A stretch of DNA of 64,000 nt, from NCBI GenBank assembly GCA_030649735.1, contig JAUSFL010000023.1, forward strand, positions 1 through 64,000, in the 5' to 3' direction. The translations under genes and the position numbers were made by a program. The notes under the pieces were generated by a model. That model was not told the origin of the DNA, made no database searches, and saw only the letters and a program-made list of their open reading frames with translations. Below, piece by piece: positions 3,230 through 61,125 of the stretch (its first letter is position 1; each line of letters begins with the position of its first letter). The stretch comes from Candidatus Iainarchaeum sp. Its GTDB lineage: Archaea; Iainarchaeota; Iainarchaeia; Iainarchaeales; UBA10191.

Positions 3230-3541
3230 TTATTTTCTTCTCTGATATCTATATTGTGGAGCTGGTTGTCTAGCTGGCGCTTCTTCTTCCTCAATTTCTA
3301 AGGCTTTAGAAGGGCAAGTTATTACAATATCTTTTACAGATTTTACAGTCCTATACGGAATGCTTTTTTCGCTGATTATTTTTTTGGCCTCTTGCTTGCT
3401 TCGCACTCTTAAAGGCTCTGTTGTGATAGTTTCAATTCTTCCTTTTTCAAGGTTTATTACCAAATCGAAGACTTTTCCCTTATATTCAGCATTATCTGTG
3501 TAGATATCCATTCCAAAAAGCTTTGAGATTCTTGCTGTCAT
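3230..3541 (-). CDS. PRC-barrel domain protein (CdpB2-like cell-division protein)
   Basis: SKLFGMDIYTDNAEYKGKVFDLVINLEKGRI...IPYRTVKSVKDIVI PRC-barrel signature. Confidence 0.85.
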   Translation of the reverse strand: MTARISKLFGMDIYTDNAEYKGKVFDLVINLEKGRIETITTEPLRVRSKQEAKKIISEKSIPYRTVKSVKDIVITCPSKALEIEEEEAPARQPAPQYRYQRRK

Positions 3542-3742
3542 TAAATTCACCCCATTAATATTGATATTAGGTTTTGAAAACCATTATACTGAAGTCAAGA
3601 AACTATTTAAATCTTACTAATTTTTTTCAAAACCAGTATTTTTCAATAATAGTGGAACTAAACCCACCCCAAAACTACATAATTATTGCTTTGTTTCATT
3701 AATTCTCTCTTGTCCTAATATCGTGTGCTTTTTATCCTAATT

Positions 3743-29538: not shown

Positions 29539-30845
29539 GGCTGGCTTTTCACTTCAATTTCCTGCCCCAGGATTTCTTTGGCTTTTTCCTGCAGTTTGAT
29601 GATTTCTTCCCTTATTTTCATTTTTTGAGTTTCCTTGATTGTCTTTACTGCCGAAAGTTCGTTGGTTTTTTGGACGGCTTCCCTTTCAATGCTTTCTTCC
29701 CTTGCTTTAAGGCCGTTTATTTGCCTGAACAGCGTGCTTTTTTCCAATGCTTCGTGGACTTTGGGCAATTCCTTGTCTATTTCATTAAGCCGCCAGAAAA
29801 AAGTGCTGAAGAAATCGAAATTTTTCAATTCTTCAATTGCCTGGATTTTCCTGTTTTTTTCTTTCTCGTCCTTGAATGAGATTTTCCCTTTATTTATCGC
29901 GTTTTCCATTTCTTGCAGGCATTGCTTTAGGATTTCTCCCTTTGGGTCCTGCCTTAATGCGTTAAAGCTGTCTTCCAAGTATGATGAAAGCATTCTTTCC
30001 TGCTCTTTTTCCAGAATCCATTCCTTGTTTGACGACAGGGTTTGCATTTTTCTCAGTTGCTTTTCCAAAGGCATAAGTAAATTTGCGGCTTTTTCCCGAA
30101 GGTCTTTTTTTTCGCCCAGCAGTTTTTCTTTTGATTTCTCGTTTTTTTCAAATTCCTGGAATGCTTCGCCATTTTTCAGCCCGTCCGCGTCTTTCAAAAC
30201 CCCGCTTTTTTCAGCGTCAAGCTCCTGGATTTCTTTTTCCCTGTCCTTGATTTCATTCTCTTTTTCCGCAACTTGCCTTTCTTTTCCTCGAATGCCGCCA
30301 ATTATTTCCAGGACTCTTTGCATTTGCGCTGTTTTGGAGCTTTTTGAAAGCTCGAATAATTCAATCAATTGCTTTTCCAATTCTTCAATTGTTTTTCCAA
30401 GCTCGTTCATTTCTTTTTTCGCCAAAAGCCCGGTGTACGCGATGTTTTTCCTGAAGGACATTATGTCTTGCTGGAATTCCCTCGCGGAATTTTGGCAGTA
30501 CGCAAAGTTTTGCTCAAACGATTTTCTTTCAGGCGGCCTTGTTTTTTCCAGAAGAGTCTGCATTTTTCCTGAAAAGCTTTCCTTGCTTGACTGGACGATT
30601 TTCCTGAAGTATTTGTTTTCGCCTTCCTGCTCAAAATCCAGGCCTTCAATGTTTTTTGTGCTGTCTTCAGCCGAGTGGATTGTTTCCTTTATTTTTGCGA
30701 ATTTTGAAAGGCATTCCTTGCCGAATTCTTTCTTTTCCTGCTCGAAGATTTTTTCAACTTCGGCCTTTAGCTCTTCAACGCCAATGGCTCTCTTGCCTTC
30801 TGGCATTTGCTCTTTCTTTCCGAAAATCTTGTCCAAAAAACCCAT
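29535..30845 (-). CDS. Long coiled-coil protein with N-terminal amphipathic helix
   Basis: MGFLDKIFGKK start at ATG 30845; E/K-rich heptads throughout. Confidence 0.75.
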   Translation of the reverse strand: MGFLDKIFGKKEQMPEGKRAIGVEELKAEVEKIFEQEKKEFGKECLSKFAKIKETIHSAEDSTKNIEGLDFEQEGENKYFRKIVQSSKESFSGKMQTLLEKTRPPERKSFEQNFAYCQNSAREFQQDIMSFRKNIAYTGLLAKKEMNELGKTIEELEKQLIELFELSKSSKTAQMQRVLEIIGGIRGKERQVAEKENEIKDREKEIQELDAEKSGVLKDADGLKNGEAFQEFEKNEKSKEKLLGEKKDLREKAANLLMPLEKQLRKMQTLSSNKEWILEKEQERMLSSYLEDSFNALRQDPKGEILKQCLQEMENAINKGKISFKDEKEKNRKIQAIEELKNFDFFSTFFWRLNEIDKELPKVHEALEKSTLFRQINGLKAREESIEREAVQKTNELSAVKTIKETQKMKIREEIIKLQEKAKEILGQEIEVKSQP

Positions 30846-37079: not shown

Positions 37080-37465
37080 AATTAATGCCATTATTCAAGA
37101 AAGCAAGATTGACAAGAGGCCGGCTCTTTGAAAAAGTTGGCGCTTTTTCACAGGCTGGGTCAAGGAATTTTGCAAAAGTTTACACTAAGCAATTGTCTGT
37201 AGCCACTGGCAGGCCTGCAATCGCAAAGTCTTTGGCAAATGAACAAGATAGGTTTTCTCCAGATTATGCCCAAATTTTAAGAAATTTGGGAAAAACTAGG
37301 ATTCGTGGGACTAAAAGAGAAAAAGTTGTCCAAAGAAAAAAGATCGTGAGAGCAATTAGTAAAAAGACTGGTTCTCCTCCAAGGCATTTTGGCCTGGCGT
37401 TAAGGGAATCGAGAATAATTGCCGAAGTCCCGCATCCTACATCAGTCAAAAGGAGGGCTAAATAA
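37076..37465 (+). CDS. Highly basic orphan protein
   Basis: R/K-rich ORF that fills the gap with overlapping start and stop codons. Confidence 0.55.
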   Translation: MKLMPLFKKARLTRGRLFEKVGAFSQAGSRNFAKVYTKQLSVATGRPAIAKSLANEQDRFSPDYAQILRNLGKTRIRGTKREKVVQRKKIVRAISKKTGSPPRHFGLALRESRIIAEVPHPTSVKRRAK

Positions 37466-56075: not shown

Positions 56076-56170
56076 TTCAGATTGAATGAATTTACTGTTT
56101 TAAAAGCCTTTAGTGACATTACTTGTTTTACAAAGATGAATTCAAGCAAAATTTCAGAAAGTGTTTTTTT

Positions 56171-57925
56171 ATGCCTACCATCAGGAAGCCAATCATCACA
56201 GTCCTTGGGCATGTTGACCATGGAAAGACCTCTTTTTTGGACGCCATTCGCGGAACCACTGTTGTTGAGAAGGAAGCCGGCAGGATTACGCAGCACATTG
56301 GCGCTACTGAAGTCCCAATAGAAGCAGTTACAAAGATTGCCGGCCCGCTTCTTGAAAAATACAAGTTTAATTTGACAATTCCCGGGCTTTTGTTCATTGA
56401 CACTCCGGGCCATGAGGCTTTTTCAAACTTGCGCAGGAGAGGCGGAAGCATTGCGGACTTGGCTGTTTTGGTCATTGACATAATGCAGGCCTGCCAGCCC
56501 CAGACTTCTGAAAGCATTGAAATCTTGAAGGCTTTCAAGGTTCCTTTTGTGATTGTTGCAAACAAGGTTGACTTGATTCAAGGCTGGGAAAAGCATCCTG
56601 GAATGAGCTTTACTGAAAGCATCAAGCTTCAGGAAGACTATGTTCAAACTGATTTGGATGAGAAAATTTACTGTCTGGTTGGGGAAATGTTCCACAAGGG
56701 CTTTGTGTGCGAGCGCTTTGACAGGATTTCTGATTTTACAAAGCAGGTTGCGATAATTCCTTTAAGCGCGAAAGACGCTGAAGGATTGCCTGAAGTTTTG
56801 CTTTTTCTTGCTGGCTTGAGCCAAAAGTTTTTGGAAAGCCAGTTGAGGATTGAAGTTTCAGGCCAGGGAAAGGGAACAGTGCTTGAAGTGAAGGAAGAGA
56901 AAGGGTTGGGAAAAACAATTGATGTCATTTTGTATGATGGCTCTTTGAAAGTCGGCGATGAGATTATTGTCGGCGCAGTTAATGGGTTTGTGAAAACCAA
57001 GATTCGCGCCTTGCTCCAGCCAAAGCCCTTGGATGAAATTCGCTCTCCAGAGCAAAAGTTTGATTCAGTCAGGGAAGTAAGCGCTGCAGTTGGAATAAAG
57101 ATTGCAGCCCCGAATTTGGAAGGCGTTCTTGCAGGCAGTCCTTTGATTGTTTACCAAAAGCCAGAGGATGAAGAGGAAGTGCTCAAGGAAGTTGTTGGAT
57201 TGAACATTGAGTCAGAGGCTTTGGGGCCTGTTGTGAGGACTGATGCATTGGGCAGTTTGGAGGCCTTGACAATGCTTTTGGACAAGGCCGGAATCAAGCC
57301 GCGCTTTGCGTCAGTTGGCGAGGTTTCAAGAAGGGACATTATTGAGGCTGTCGGCGTTGCCAAAGAAGACAAGTTCAAGGGAGTTGTTTTTGCATTCAAC
57401 ACAAAATTGAATGACGGCGCTGTTGAAGAATTGAAAAAAAATCCAGTGAAAGTTTTTTCAGCAAATGTCATTTACAGGCTCATTGAAGATTATGAAAAGT
57501 GGGTTAGTGATGAAAACGCGGCAGAGAAAAAGTCTGTTTTGGAAAAAATCGTGTTTCCTGCAAGAATCATTGTGGTCCGAAATTGCATTTTTCGCAACGC
57601 AAATCCCGCGATTGTTGGAGTGAAGGTTTTGGGCGGCAAATTAAGGCCTGGCGCCAAATTGTTCAATGGCGAGAAATTGCTTGGCGAAGTCATTGCAATA
57701 CAGGACAAGGGAAGCAATTTGCAGGAATTAAAGCAAGGCCAAGAGGCCGCGATTTCCATAACTGACGCGGTTTGCGGCCGCAATCTTTTCGAAGAGGACG
57801 AGCTTTTGACAGTGCTTTCAGTCAATGATTATGCGGAAATTTTGAAAATAAAGGACGCCTTTACGCAGGCTGAATTGGACTTGGCTGAAGAAATCAGGAA
57901 CAAGTTAAGGAAGCAAAGCAAGTAG
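56171..57925 (+). CDS. infB: Translation initiation factor aIF5B (IF-2)
   Basis: LGHVDHGKT, EAGRITQHIGA, IDTPGHEAF, NKVD; ATG 56171. Confidence 0.96.
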   Translation: MPTIRKPIITVLGHVDHGKTSFLDAIRGTTVVEKEAGRITQHIGATEVPIEAVTKIAGPLLEKYKFNLTIPGLLFIDTPGHEAFSNLRRRGGSIADLAVLVIDIMQACQPQTSESIEILKAFKVPFVIVANKVDLIQGWEKHPGMSFTESIKLQEDYVQTDLDEKIYCLVGEMFHKGFVCERFDRISDFTKQVAIIPLSAKDAEGLPEVLLFLAGLSQKFLESQLRIEVSGQGKGTVLEVKEEKGLGKTIDVILYDGSLKVGDEIIVGAVNGFVKTKIRALLQPKPLDEIRSPEQKFDSVREVSAAVGIKIAAPNLEGVLAGSPLIVYQKPEDEEEVLKEVVGLNIESEALGPVVRTDALGSLEALTMLLDKAGIKPRFASVGEVSRRDIIEAVGVAKEDKFKGVVFAFNTKLNDGAVEELKKNPVKVFSANVIYRLIEDYEKWVSDENAAEKKSVLEKIVFPARIIVVRNCIFRNANPAIVGVKVLGGKLRPGAKLFNGEKLLGEVIAIQDKGSNLQELKQGQEAAISITDAVCGRNLFEEDELLTVLSVNDYAEILKIKDAFTQAELDLAEEIRNKLRKQSK

Positions 57926-57940
57926 TTTTTCCGCACATTT

Positions 57941-57946
57941 TTTAAA
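57941..57946 (+). promoter_or_regulatory. TATA box for the ilv leader transcript
   Basis: TTTAAA 24-29 nt upstream of the leader ATG, consistent with a leaderless start. Confidence 0.5.
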
Positions 57947-57969
57947 TTCCTCGCAAGTTATTTATTGTC

Positions 57970-58047
57970 ATGTTTAGTGCAATGCCATCAAAAGTTCTGC
58001 TGCCAGTCGCTGTTTTGGTAGTCTTGGTTGTTGCACTGGTTGCTTAA
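57970..58047 (+). CDS. Putative ilvB leader peptide MFSAMPSKVLLPVAVLVVLVVALVA
   Basis: 25 codons; 8 Val and 5 Leu among the last 17; 86 bp upstream of ilvB; not in the ORF track. Confidence 0.7.
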   Translation: MFSAMPSKVLLPVAVLVVLVVALVA

Positions 58048-58133
58048 GCATTCCTGAAAAAAATCGAATTCTGGGAGTGCGGGATTAAAAAGTTCAGAAG
58101 TCTTTAGAAAAAAAGGAAAGAAAGTGGAAAAAA

Positions 58134-59837
58134 ATGAATGGTGCTGAGGCAGTGTTGAAGGCATTGCAGGAAGAGAAAGTCAGGCATTCTTTCGGGGTTA
58201 CTGGCGGTTCTGTAATTCCATTGTTTGACGAGTACTTCAAGGACAATCATGAAATCAGGCACATTCCAGTAAGGCATGAGCAGGGCGCTGCGCACGCGGC
58301 TGACGGCTATGCAAGGGCTTCTGGAAAGCCAGGAGTTTGCATTGCGACTTCAGGCCCTGGAGCAACTAATTTGGTCACTGGAATAATGACTGCTTTCATG
58401 GATTCTAGTCCAATGGTTGCTTTGGGCGGGCAGGTTGCTACTTCGCTGATTGGGAATGACGCCTTTCAAGAGTCTGACATGATGGGAATAACTCTTCCAA
58501 TAACAAAGCATAATTTTCAAATCCGCTCTCCGGAAAAAATCAATTCCACAATAAAGAACGCGTTCAAGATTGCGACCACTGGAAGGCCCGGGCCTGTTTA
58601 CATTGACTTGCCTAAAGACACTTTAATGAAGGAAGTTTCTGCTGTGGAGAAAGTTCCATTGCATGGCTATAAGCCGAACTTGAAAGGCCATCCATTGCAG
58701 GTGAAAAAGGCTGCAGAGCTTTTGCTGAATGCCGAAAGGCCTGTCTTGCTTTTGGGCGGCGGAGTCATTCTTGCAAACGCCGCAAAGGAAGCTGCAGAAT
58801 TGGCTTTGGAATTCAACATTCCAGTAATAACCACTTTAATGGGAAAGTCGGCATTTCCTGAAACAAATGCTCTCTCGCTTGGAATGCTTGGCATGCATGG
58901 GAGAAAATGCGCGAATTACGCTATTTCCAATGCTGATGTGGTTTTGGCTGTCGGCTGCAGGTTTAATGACAGGATTACTGGAAAGCTTTCAACATTCTTG
59001 AAGGACGCAAAATTAATCCACATTGACGTTGATAATTCAGAGATTGGAAAAATCGTTCCTTCAGCAATTCCGATTGTTGGGGACGCAAAGCTTGTTTTGC
59101 AAGACTTGCTTTTGGCCGCAAAAAAGTTTTCTTTAGCGAAGAAAACAACTTGGTCTGAAAAATTAAAGGTTTTGGCGAAAGAATGCGACTGTGACTTGAA
59201 TATTTCTTCAAATCCGGCAGACCCTAAAAGAGTGATTTTTGAAATTTCCAAAGTCCTCAAGGAAAATGACATTGTAACCACTGGGGTAGGCCAGCATCAA
59301 ATGTTTGCAGCGCACTTCCTAAAGCGCGATAGGCCAAGGACTTTCATTTCCAGCGGCGGCGCCGGAACAATGGGATTTGGATTTCCTGCCGCGATTGGCG
59401 CAAGGCTTGCAAGGCCGGATTCTGAAGTTTTCAACATTGATGGCGATGGAAGCTTTGGAATGAATGTCCAGGAGCTTGCAACCTGCAGGTTTGAAAACAT
59501 TAAGGTCATTCCGGTAATTTTCAATAATTCTTACTTAGGAATGGTCAGGCAGTGGCTTGAACTGTTTTATGAAAAGCGGTATTCCACTGTTGACTTGGGG
59601 CAAAGCACTGACTTTTCTAAAATTTCTGAAGGCTTTGGAGTGAAGGGATTGAGGGTTGAAAGGCCTTCAGAGCTTGCTGAAGCGTTCCAGGCCGCGTTGA
59701 AGAATGATGAAACAACTGTAATTGATGTTGCAATCGCGCCAGAAGCAAACATCACTCCAATGTTTTCTGCGGGCTCTTCAGTCTTTGAAATGTTCGGACC
59801 TTGCATTACTGAAAATTATTTTAAGAGGGCATTGTAA
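58134..59837 (+). CDS. ilvB: Acetolactate synthase large subunit
   Basis: RHEQGAAHAADGYAR, TSGPGATN, GNDAFQE, GMLGMHG, GVGQHQM, DGDGSF...NN.YLGMVRQW. Confidence 0.96.
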   Translation: MNGAEAVLKALQEEKVRHSFGVTGGSVIPLFDEYFKDNHEIRHIPVRHEQGAAHAADGYARASGKPGVCIATSGPGATNLVTGIMTAFMDSSPMVALGGQVATSLIGNDAFQESDMMGITLPITKHNFQIRSPEKINSTIKNAFKIATTGRPGPVYIDLPKDTLMKEVSAVEKVPLHGYKPNLKGHPLQVKKAAELLLNAERPVLLLGGGVILANAAKEAAELALEFNIPVITTLMGKSAFPETNALSLGMLGMHGRKCANYAISNADVVLAVGCRFNDRITGKLSTFLKDAKLIHIDVDNSEIGKIVPSAIPIVGDAKLVLQDLLLAAKKFSLAKKTTWSEKLKVLAKECDCDLNISSNPADPKRVIFEISKVLKENDIVTTGVGQHQMFAAHFLKRDRPRTFISSGGAGTMGFGFPAAIGARLARPDSEVFNIDGDGSFGMNVQELATCRFENIKVIPVIFNNSYLGMVRQWLELFYEKRYSTVDLGQSTDFSKISEGFGVKGLRVERPSELAEAFQAALKNDETTVIDVAIAPEANITPMFSAGSSVFEMFGPCITENYFKRAL

Positions 59838-60340
59838 TGAGTTTTGAGAAAAAATCCAATGGGTTGAGAAAGCACATTGTTGGAATGCTTGTGAATGACG
59901 AGCCCGGGGTTTTGGCAAAGATTTCCGGAATGTTCACTCGCCGCGGCTTTAACATTGACACTATCATTGTCGGAAAGACAAACATTCCTGATGTTTCCCA
60001 CATTGTAATAAGCCTTTTGGGGAATGACAGGACTATAGAGCAGTTGGACAAGCAATTGTACAAAATGATTGACATTGTAAAGCTTGCTGACTTTAGCGAG
60101 TCAAATGCAGTGGTTCGAGAGCATTGCCTCTTGAAGGTTTCTTCCACTGAAAAAAGCGTTGAGCACTTGAATAATGTATGCAAACTTTTCGAGGCCCGCG
60201 TGCTTCACGTGAACACTGAAAGCGTCATTGTGGAACTCGCAAGCTCTCCTTCAAAAATTGATTCATTGATTGAAACCCTTGCCCCTTTTGGAATCAAGGA
60301 ATTAAGCAGGACCGGAGTCAACGCGCTGCAGAAAGACTGA
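59837..60340 (+). CDS. ilvH: Acetolactate synthase small regulatory subunit
   Basis: VNDEPGVLAKISGMFTRRGFNIDT, QLYKMIDI, ELSRTG. Confidence 0.95.
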   Translation: MSFEKKSNGLRKHIVGMLVNDEPGVLAKISGMFTRRGFNIDTIIVGKTNIPDVSHIVISLLGNDRTIEQLDKQLYKMIDIVKLADFSESNAVVREHCLLKVSSTEKSVEHLNNVCKLFEARVLHVNTESVIVELASSPSKIDSLIETLAPFGIKELSRTGVNALQKD

Positions 60341-60405: not shown

Positions 60406-61125
60406 ATGCCTCAAATCATCCGTCAAGGCGTTGCTGCCAAGTGGCGTTCTGAAAGACTGCAGCAAGCGCGGAAAAGCCTTCATGACAAATTAAGGGTTTT
60501 CAAAGGGGCCAGCGCGCATCAGAGGAGAATGTACGCTGACTTGAGGAAAACAATTGTTTTTGGAAAGAAATTCCTTTCAACTTTTCCTGAAATTGAAGTG
60601 CGCGGGAAGAAAAGGAAAAAATTTGCATTATTTCTTTCTAGGACTGATTGGGAGTCTCCGGTTTCAATTGCATTGAATGTCCAGGACGTGCCAAAGGGAA
60701 GCAACTTGCCTGGCGCTTGGCATCCCAGGCTAATGCAAAGCAAGCTTGCTGAAGCCGGCTTGGAATTTGACAAAAATAGTGTAATAATGACTCTTCAAGG
60801 AAGGCAATTAACTGAAAGAGAGCAGAAAGCCAAGCCATTGCTTGACTTGTTCAAAAACTGTTCTGGAAAATCTTGGGCTGACTTTCTTGTTGAAAGAGTT
60901 GAAGAGCACGCAAGGCAATTGGGCTTTAAGCAATGCAAAATCAGGGAGCCAAGCACGCTCGTATTTTACCAAACTCCAGTGGTTTCAAAGCCTGGCAGTT
61001 CCAGAAGGCCTGCAACTGATGGGGAAAAATTGAAAATCAGGCAGCAAATGCACAAGCTGTATGACGGCACTGCATTAAGCCACCATTACAGGAAAGAAGG
61101 AGAATTTTGGGTCAAGGATTTGTAA
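60406..61125 (+). CDS. Basic orphan protein, possible GNAT-like C-terminal half
   Basis: FLVERVEEHARQLGFKQCKI...LYD...HYRKEG resembles GNAT motifs A/B. Confidence 0.6.
   Translation: MPQIIRQGVAAKWRSERLQQARKSLHDKLRVFKGASAHQRRMYADLRKTIVFGKKFLSTFPEIEVRGKKRKKFALFLSRTDWESPVSIALNVQDVPKGSNLPGAWHPRLMQSKLAEAGLEFDKNSVIMTLQGRQLTEREQKAKPLLDLFKNCSGKSWADFLVERVEEHARQLGFKQCKIREPSTLVFYQTPVVSKPGSSRRPATDGEKLKIRQQMHKLYDGTALSHHYRKEGEFWVKDL

Follow-up and report, generated by a model that had tools for sequence, protein, structure and literature searches.

A conserved leucine- and valine-rich leader upstream of archaeal ilvB-ilvH looks like a ribosome-read amino-acid gauge

The window analyzed here is a stretch of 64,000 nucleotides from contig JAUSFL010000023.1 (C49 in our numbering) of Candidatus Iainarchaeum sp., an archaeon whose genome (G000) comprises 1.28 Mb in 51 contigs with 41.6% G+C. 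It carries ilvB and ilvH, the genes for the two subunits of acetolactate synthase, and upstream of them a mini-gene, an upstream open reading frame (uORF) rich in leucine (Leu) and valine (Val) codons, which is the subject of this report. The original prediction, made from this DNA alone, described the mini-gene as the leader peptide of a candidate attenuator. The anatomy it gave agrees with the sequence and with the listing of open reading frames (ORFs): a TATA box, the frame at 57970-58047 in which 13 of the last 17 codons encode Val or Leu, and ilvB 86 bp beyond, counted from the uORF stop codon to the ilvB ATG at 58134. All features are collected in Table 1. The upstream neighbor, an aIF5B-like gene, is followed by two T-runs. 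Oligo-T serves as a terminator in archaea, and the runs at 57926-57943 likely mark the end of the aIF5B-like transcript, so that the leader probably has a promoter of its own. At the other end of the spacer, AGTGG presumably acts as a Shine-Dalgarno-like signal for ilvB; related motifs, GGTG or AGGTG, precede the first genes of the relatives described below.

Table 1. Features of the leader and its surroundings (positions are those of the window)
Feature	Position	Strand	Remarks and basis
aIF5B-like gene	56123-57925	+	Upstream neighbor of the leader; sequence reading and ORF listing
Two T-runs	57926-57930, 57938-57943	+	Directly 3' of the aIF5B-like stop codon; sequence reading
TATA-like box TTTTAAAT	57940-57947	+	28 nt (from TTAAAT) ahead of the uORF ATG; sequence reading
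Leader mini-gene (uORF)	57970-58047	+	ATG at 57970, TAA at 58045-58047; 25 codons plus TAA; kept in relatives
Sensor tract in the uORF (putative)	57994-58044	+	17 codons: 8 Val, 5 Leu, 3 alanine, 1 proline; translation
P0, 5' strand (uORF head)	57975-57982	+	Pairs with 58031-58038; in the minimum-free-energy fold
P0, 3' strand	58031-58038	+	Within the Val/Leu tract; minimum-free-energy fold and recoding test
P1, 5' arm	58048-58056	+	Begins directly behind the stop codon; helix of 9 bp
P1, 3' arm	58072-58080	+	G-rich, Shine-Dalgarno-like
S2, 5' strand	58066-58073	+	3' part of the P1 loop; partner 58095-58102
S2, 3' strand CAGAAGTC	58095-58102	+	Followed by conserved nTTAG; MAFFT alignment A1
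Shine-Dalgarno-like AGTGG	58123-58127	+	6 nt ahead of the ilvB ATG; in no conserved pairing
ilvB, biosynthetic acetolactate synthase large subunit	58134-59837	+	TIGR00118, 765 bits against a cut-off of 538
ilvH/ilvN, acetolactate synthase small (regulatory) subunit	59837-60340	+	TIGR00119, 165.9 bits against a cut-off of 56.9; overlaps ilvB

The mini-gene is conserved across the order. At a threshold of E <=1e-150, ilvB is present in 35 of the 196 genomes of the order, whose records bear titles such as Candidatus Iainarchaeum, a DPANN lineage. The DNA upstream of ilvB was taken from 33 relatives, from this genome and from its genus mate G001; long ORFs were mapped and the leader regions were searched by rule. 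An ATG-start uORF of 17-39 codons with 8-12 Leu/Val among its last 14 residues was found in 30 of the 35 ilvB-bearing genomes, this one and G001 included, which bears out the proposal that a Val/Leu leader peptide stands before ilvBH. Among the other five, G109 has the same Leu/Val tail broken off by a contig end, G021 and G018 have a Leu/Val-rich frame without an ATG, G154 has no clear uORF, and G102 has no sequence upstream of ilvB. The uORF always lies downstream of a TATA-like box and at the head of the gene cluster, whichever gene comes first. That gene is ilvB itself in ten genomes; in most it is a leuA of about 520 residues (identified in G008 by NF002086, 702 bits), with ilvB directly behind it, and in G152 and G141 the uORF heads leuA-leuB-leuC-leuD-ilvB (for G141 by gene order). 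Compared across the relatives, the mini-gene, its position at the operon head, its Leu/Val-only tail and the helix abutting its stop codon (P1, below) all bear the marks of selection.

Some local features were noted in the course of this comparison. In the G001 locus, two N bases stand at the expected ilvB start (~386-387 of L003), and the comparison of spacers ends there, just past the conserved hairpin. G021 and G018, which belong to different families, share a motif of about 23 nt, GGTGTTTT..ATCGTACA..GG, about 30 nt after the TATA box of the ilvB leader (loci L034 and L035). It opens the long Leu/Val-ending frame that has no ATG, and might serve as a non-canonical start or belong to a distinct RNA element at the 5' end. 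In the loci of G170 and G165 (L043, L044), long T-rich imperfect repeats, with units such as TTATTTTT, lie 100-400 nt upstream of the leaders, flanked by a small conserved ORF on one side and the ilvB leader on the other.

The composition of the leader tail is exceptional within the genome. When all 8525 short ATG ORFs (12-45 residues, six frames, whole genome) are ranked, the tail of this uORF is the richest in Leu/Val; only two of them have at least nine Leu/Val in the last 14 residues, with this one at the top. It is also the sole intergenic frame of the genome with at least six Val in 10 residues. A broader search of short intergenic frames for runs of any single amino acid was noisy and returned 801 frames, mostly with Leu, Phe, Lys or Ser runs; by eye, no His, Trp, Thr or Phe leader was evident among them.

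Among the relatives, it is the encoded residues that are kept. When the final ten codons are taken from 31 leaders, T fills position 2 in 83% of cases (entropy 0.90 bits), position 3 is under almost no constraint (1.89 bits), and all six Leu codons and all four Val codons occur. The best 12-residue windows of the leader tails consist of 54% Leu, 26% Val, 6% alanine (Ala), 2% isoleucine (Ile) and 0% phenylalanine (Phe), compared with 25% Leu, 17.5% Ile, 14.6% Phe, 12.8% Ala and 11.8% Val in hydrophobic windows of the genome's own proteins. The interchangeable use of Ile, Phe and Ala, named by the original prediction as the sign of a plain transmembrane peptide, is not what the tails display. 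These patterns argue that selection works on the encoded amino acids of the tails. They also bear on the idea that the uORF makes a small hydrophobic peptide, associated with the membrane or with an enzyme, that acts as a protein, the hairpin behind it being an ordinary RNA feature. In its favor are the hydrophobic tail and the fact that small membrane proteins are widespread and frequently missed by annotation. Yet the hydrophobic runs, of just 10-17 residues, fall short of the usual length of a membrane span, Ile and Phe, common in the hydrophobic segments of this genome, scarcely occur in the tails, and the N-terminal halves of the peptides are unrelated from one relative to the next. Furthermore, the amount of Val changes according to whether ilvB is present, even within one genome and within one genus, as described next. 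We regard a role as a small protein as very improbable.

To compare leaders of different pathways, we turned to leuA, which is present in 50 of the 196 genomes. Twenty upstream regions were taken in which leuA lies outside the ilvB loci already examined. Three were dropped from the leuA-only set: those of G174 and G119, where the contig stops after leuA and the leader contains Leu and Val as in their ilvB-bearing kin, and that of G007, where leuA directly follows another gene. The remaining 17 relatives and this genome give 18 leuA-only operons. The number of Val per best 12-residue window has a mean of 3.12 (minimum 2) in 32 ilvB-holding operons and a mean of 0.33 (maximum 2) in the 18 leuA-only operons; the rank test gives p ~2e-9, a value that overstates the difference because the compared genomes are kin. 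In G162 the rule chose an unrelated frame 398 nt upstream, and the tail of the TATA-proximal leuA leader there has no Val. Contrasts within a genome or a genus are less exposed to the problem of kinship. In all seven genomes that have both kinds of leader (G000, G159, G162, G021, G018, G150 and G158), Val is confined to the ilvB leader. Within genus g69, where the leaders share one RNA scaffold after the stop codon, the tails have two to three Val where ilvB is in the operon (G152, G141), and at most one, with none in five of six, where no ilvB is found at the threshold given above (G148, G147, G144, G149, G151, G160).

This genome is one of the seven. Its second leader lies in a 263-nt gap upstream of leuA on another contig (C46, ~29822-30075; ~3323-3576 of locus L129), behind purD- and purN-like genes. 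It has a TATA-like box and a frame, of uncertain start (GTG at ~29889), with nine Leu and no Val in the best 12-residue window. An 11-bp hairpin follows, its 5' arm overlapping the last codons of the Leu frame. The leader heads leuA and, 47 nt after it, leuS, a gene for a bacterial-type leucyl-tRNA synthetase (TIGR00396, 970 bits).

Similar leaders occur outside the order. In five records titled Woesearchaeota, Nanoarchaeia or 'Methanosarcinales' (L091, L094, L096, L100, L126), Leu and Val leaders with stop-abutting hairpins lie about 1.65-1.85 kb before ilvB. Two further records titled Woesearchaeota, L102 (~2440-2533) and L121 (~2400-2496), have Val-only tails directly before ilvB, with five to six consecutive Val and no Leu, which by their composition appear to be a third tuning of the same device. 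The Leu/Val score was at most 6 in nine of ten bacterial loci and in all Thermoplasmata loci scanned; the sole bacterial exception, L107, scored 9 at 1.9 kb upstream. As judged by comparison of these leaders, the encoded amino acids follow the pathway controlled, Leu and Val before ilvB and Leu only before leuA or leuA-leuS.

The position of the uORF on its transcript is suggested by the promoter. A TATA-like hexamer was found in 25 leaders, and in 10 of them it lies 28 nt from the ATG, a spacing that would put the uORF at the transcript's 5' end or right beside it. This fits a leaderless start. Families f21 and f11 differ in having a TATA box placed farther upstream and, 8-10 nt ahead of the ATG, an AGTGA motif. 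Two other candidate signals in the spacer were set aside. The A-rich stretch after P1, considered as a second promoter, does not have the T-rich TATA form of most relatives' promoters, and a second mini-ORF ending at the conserved TTAG has a frame that, by eye, is not kept among relatives.

Directly downstream of the uORF, we find a conserved RNA helix. In most leaders an uninterrupted helix, P1, begins 0-2 nt past the stop codon. Because MAFFT misaligns the P1 arms, the structure was counted as named by hand, together with alignment-free helix counts with two controls. A helix of at least 7 bp in this position is found in 22 of 32 leaders, compared with 17% of dinucleotide shuffles and 11.8% of cases after 3377 other short ORFs of the same loci; for at least 8 bp the figures are 17 of 32, 8% and 5%. 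A MAFFT alignment (A1), fitted to no structure, covers 23 of 34 leaders; the 11 left out (family f11, G021, G018 and G154) have visibly different sequence after the stop codon. On A1, 86% of the P1 cells are paired and four of seven pairs have changes on both sides. The whole named structure is 78.6% paired, as opposed to 44-56% when the partner strand is slid, and its covariation score is above that of all 500 of 500 shuffles. The post-stop hairpin of the original prediction is in this way conserved with compensatory changes.

A second pairing, S2, may join the P1 loop to a downstream strand. Its 3' strand, CAGAAGTC, is almost invariant and lies about 20 nt downstream of the P1 loop strand. 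Six of the eight S2 pairs can form in this leader and six to eight in 10 of 12 other class-A leaders. Since S2 overlaps P1 by two pairs only, the two could form a pseudoknot; otherwise S2 might take the place of the two innermost pairs of P1. The 5' arm of P1 seems to resemble the 16S rRNA 3' end with one C removed. The 3' arm, although Shine-Dalgarno-like, is 54 nt before the ilvB start and is not the ribosome-binding site of ilvB.

These RNA features raise the question whether the element works as RNA alone, as a riboswitch or as a leader bound by a protein, with the open frame there by accident. RNA-level conservation is seen for P1 and for the invariant CAGAAGTC, and a pseudoknot with A-rich loops would suit the binding of a ligand or a protein. 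The coding side of the leader argues otherwise. The frame is open, with start and stop, in 30 genomes of many families; its length varies in whole codons (17-39 in 29 ATG-start leaders); and third codon positions vary freely while second positions stay T. An Rfam scan of 57700-58400 returned no match to a family, the best hits (E 2.7-4.7) being to unrelated families and far below gathering scores. We consider an RNA-only element highly unlikely. A covariance model of the leader (R1) found only its own leader in this genome, the other four matches having E values of 0.13-0.72; the C46 leuA leader, which differs in sequence, was not found. Weak R1 matches elsewhere in the window, at 37247, 38573 and 23295 (E 0.11-0.23) were taken as chance. 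The same holds for a scan for bacterial promoters and terminators, which gave no promoter and two terminator-like sites where 0.8 are expected, one of them inside the uORF (57999-58022).

The original prediction quoted three pairings, 57975-82 with 58031-38, 58048-55 with 58073-80, and 58033-37 with 58076-80. All three lie where it put them, and the first two are in the minimum-free-energy fold. To ask which are favored, each leader was compared with its own synonymous recodings, a low fraction meaning that the pairing is favored. The first pairing belongs to a class-wide pairing of uORF head and tail, P0, which is favored by codon choice: the fraction is <=0.1 in 12 of 28 leaders, with a median of 0.11 and a value of 0.09 in this leader. 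The third, GCACT with AGTGC, had been offered as the alternative arm of a switch. This pairing, in which the tail meets the 3' arm of P1, did not stand up as a conserved feature, as it is no better than in synonymous recodings (0.495 in this leader; <=0.1 in 1 of 28). Where the tail is matched to the 5' arm of P1, the fraction is <=0.1 in 7 of 31 leaders, and such pairing is favored only in family f21 (0.01-0.08 in G088, G090, G103, G100 and G101); for the class of this leader it was rejected, the fraction here being 0.48.

Taken together, the coding and RNA features lead us to a mechanism. We think it probable that the 25-codon uORF is a gauge, read by the ribosome, of charged Leu-tRNA and Val-tRNA, and that it controls ilvB-ilvH in cis. 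The transcript would begin at or next to the ATG, with the first ribosome trailing RNA polymerase. On the 13 Leu/Val codons of the 17-codon tract, this ribosome would lose speed if charged Leu-tRNA or Val-tRNA ran short. The first base of P1 is the one that follows the stop codon, and from the known footprint of the ribosome, a ribosome on the stop codon must cover the 5' arm of P1. When Leu and Val are plentiful, the ribosome at the stop codon would cover 58048-58056, and P1 would be barred from forming while the polymerase transcribes 58057-58133. When either is scarce, the ribosome would stall within 57994-58030. A ribosome stalled at least four codons before the stop leaves the P1 5' arm free, so P1, possibly with S2 as a pseudoknot, would fold and its formation would report starvation.

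How the folding of P1 is turned into expression is a separate question, for which the original prediction conjectured factor-dependent termination or translational control. In the E. coli trp leader, the segment adjoining the stop codon is the antiterminator strand, and by this logic we favor P1/S2 as the ON fold. It would shield the nascent RNA in the untranslated 86-nt spacer from termination by FttA/aCPSF1, an output that we propose tentatively, by analogy, and hold to be possible rather than probable. FttA/aCPSF1 has been proposed, in the work described in PMC11616081, to police uncoupled polymerases, and is described in PMC8716108 as cooperating with U-tracts.

Several observations weigh against the gauge or against this output. 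The fold of the single sequence (57960-58140) is no more stable than shuffles (z = -0.62), and RNAalifold predicted no pairs on A1. S2 is almost without covariation, its 3' strand being nearly invariant. In the class of this leader no clearly exclusive alternative to P1 appears to be conserved. As the original prediction noted, no U-tract follows the hairpin: there is no run of four or more T in or after P1 of this leader. Among the 25 leaders with a clean P1, a run of at least four T occurs in the loop in 12 and after P1 in 7, and in these seven, P1 with its U-tract looks like a terminator, opposite in sign to the preferred output. Lastly, this genome and its genus mate have no detectable ilvC/ilvD, which puts the purpose of the operon here in question. 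In most relatives ilvC lies directly 3' of ilvB-ilvH. This genome has no KARI_C or ILVD_EDD_N match, and G001, whose genome is 81% complete, has no ilvC match. Either the genes are unassembled or the genus retains acetolactate synthase without the remaining valine pathway. At the ilvC position of the relatives, directly after ilvH, this genome has an ORF of 239 residues (60406-61125, forward strand) with no NCBIfam match at E <=1e-5.

The U-tracts suggest a different output for the same sensor, with P1 as the OFF state. P1 and a U-tract would form an intrinsic terminator, and an early stall would release the last codons to form an antiterminator with the 5' arm of P1. The T-runs in the seven leaders lie within 14 nt after P1, and runs of six to nine T follow the hairpin in G152, G141, G159 and several leuA leaders (G164, G013, G159). 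The codon choice of family f21, where pairing of the last codons with the 5' arm beats synonymous recodings, is also what this model would need. But this leader and most of its class have no U-tract, nor is the pairing favored in them. In addition, by occupying the stop codon a ribosome would itself keep P1 from forming and allow read-through at plenty; unless it is released very quickly, the sign of the response would be wrong. As a general account we find the terminator output unlikely; in the minority of leaders that bear a U-tract, taking P1 for a terminator, with the sign reversed, is no less natural than our own view.

The sensor could also act after transcription. A stalled ribosome near the 5' end, or P0 and P1, or both, might protect the mRNA from 5'-to-3' decay, for which the stabilization of erm leaders in Bacillus is a model; or folding might alter access to the ilvB ribosome-binding site. 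The apparently leaderless design and the lack of a terminator signal at this leader would suit such an output, and translational attenuation by leaderless short ORFs is described for mycobacteria (10.1101/834739). Against it, the Shine-Dalgarno-like motif of ilvB takes part in no conserved pairing, no test aimed at such a pairing having been made, and its distance from the leader ranges from about 40 to 185 nt among relatives. We judge a post-transcriptional output to be quite unlikely. Set beside these alternatives, protection of the nascent RNA by P1/S2 is the output we prefer.

The gauge can be compared with known systems. The E. coli leaders ivbL (of ilvBN) and ilvL (of ilvGMEDA) are classical cases of ribosome-mediated transcription attenuation. 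Like them, the archaeal leader has a short ORF ahead of the acetolactate synthase genes, within the 5' leader of their operon, encodes amino acids that match the pathway, is rich in Val and Leu codons but not in Ile codons, and has RNA helices adjoining the stop codon. Unlike them, it has an archaeal host, an archaeal promoter and, probably, a leaderless start; it has no hairpin-plus-U-tract terminator; its run of sensor codons (13 of 17) is far longer and reaches the stop codon; and there is no relation in sequence or in Rfam. Measured against the attenuator family in general, it has a uORF in the leader of an amino-acid operon and codons enriched for the pathway's own amino acids. That the uORF is translated is suggested indirectly, by the leaderless spacing or the AGTGA motif, by the pattern of codon positions and by lengths that vary in whole codons. 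As to mutually exclusive folds, P1 abuts the stop codon and covaries and P0 is favored by codon choice, but S2 shares only 2 nt with P1 and no exclusive partner appears to be conserved in the class of this leader. An intrinsic terminator, a feature of the classical family, is absent from this leader.

Other counterparts are found among bacteria. The ilvBNC attenuator of Corynebacterium glutamicum, as described in PMC11857589, has a leader peptide and a three-hairpin model that includes a terminator; according to the title of Morbach et al. (2000), cited in PMC13158618, its leader peptide is made without a ribosome-binding site. It shares with our leader a peptide before ilvB, several hairpins and, in having no ribosome-binding site, a resemblance to the leaderless design; it differs in being bacterial and in its terminator-containing model. 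In the mycobacterial 'Cys ribulon' of polycysteine leaderless short ORFs, as reported in 10.1101/834739, a stalled ribosome opens a fold that conceals the next gene's ribosome-binding site. Here too, short ORFs with runs of cognate codons, probably leaderless and sensory, stand at operon heads, and several operons would be tuned by one amino acid; the archaeal leaders differ in the amino acids and the domain of life, and have no conserved pairing that hides a ribosome-binding site. The ilv-leu operon of Staphylococcus aureus is described in PMC5794164 as having a leucine-rich attenuator peptide that works alongside CodY. There, as here, a Leu-rich leader precedes genes for the synthesis of branched-chain amino acids, in a bacterial setting and with CodY alongside. 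By analogy of function, the archaeal leader resembles bacterial ivbL/ilvL, leuL and the corynebacterial ilvBNC leaders.

Leader-peptide attenuation is textbook bacterial gene control and depends on coupled transcription and translation. A full-text literature search, with subscription journals and supplements outside its reach, found no report of it in archaea. The words 'attenuation' and 'leader peptide' do not occur in a 2021 review on archaeal transcription-translation coupling, and PMC13158618, the one archaeal paper among the search results, brings up attenuation while citing bacterial work. The leader described here resembles gauges of amino acids that rely on the ribosome and have until now been known from bacteria alone. 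A wider proposal, which we put forward as speculative and hold to be doubtful at this breadth, is that archaea, genome-reduced DPANN included, widely use ribosome-mediated attenuation. A stop-abutting helix or pseudoknot, masked by the terminating ribosome, would decide whether FttA/aCPSF1 releases an uncoupled polymerase in the spacer, an output unlike the bacterial hairpin-plus-U-tract. The same scaffold, retuned to Leu, Val or both by codon swaps, would make up a ribosome-directed regulon of ilv, leu and leuS.

The natural retuning of the leaders, Leu only before leuA-leuS, Leu and Val before ilvB, and Val only in the two records from another lineage, makes the hypothesis directly testable by codon swaps. 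If it is true, archaeal ribosomes and polymerases would be coupled closely enough for gene regulation, and these leaders would offer a natural, compact template for testing how FttA-type termination reads that coupling. It would also mean that DPANN archaea, usually thought to be poor in regulation and biosynthesis, have amino-acid-responsive control.

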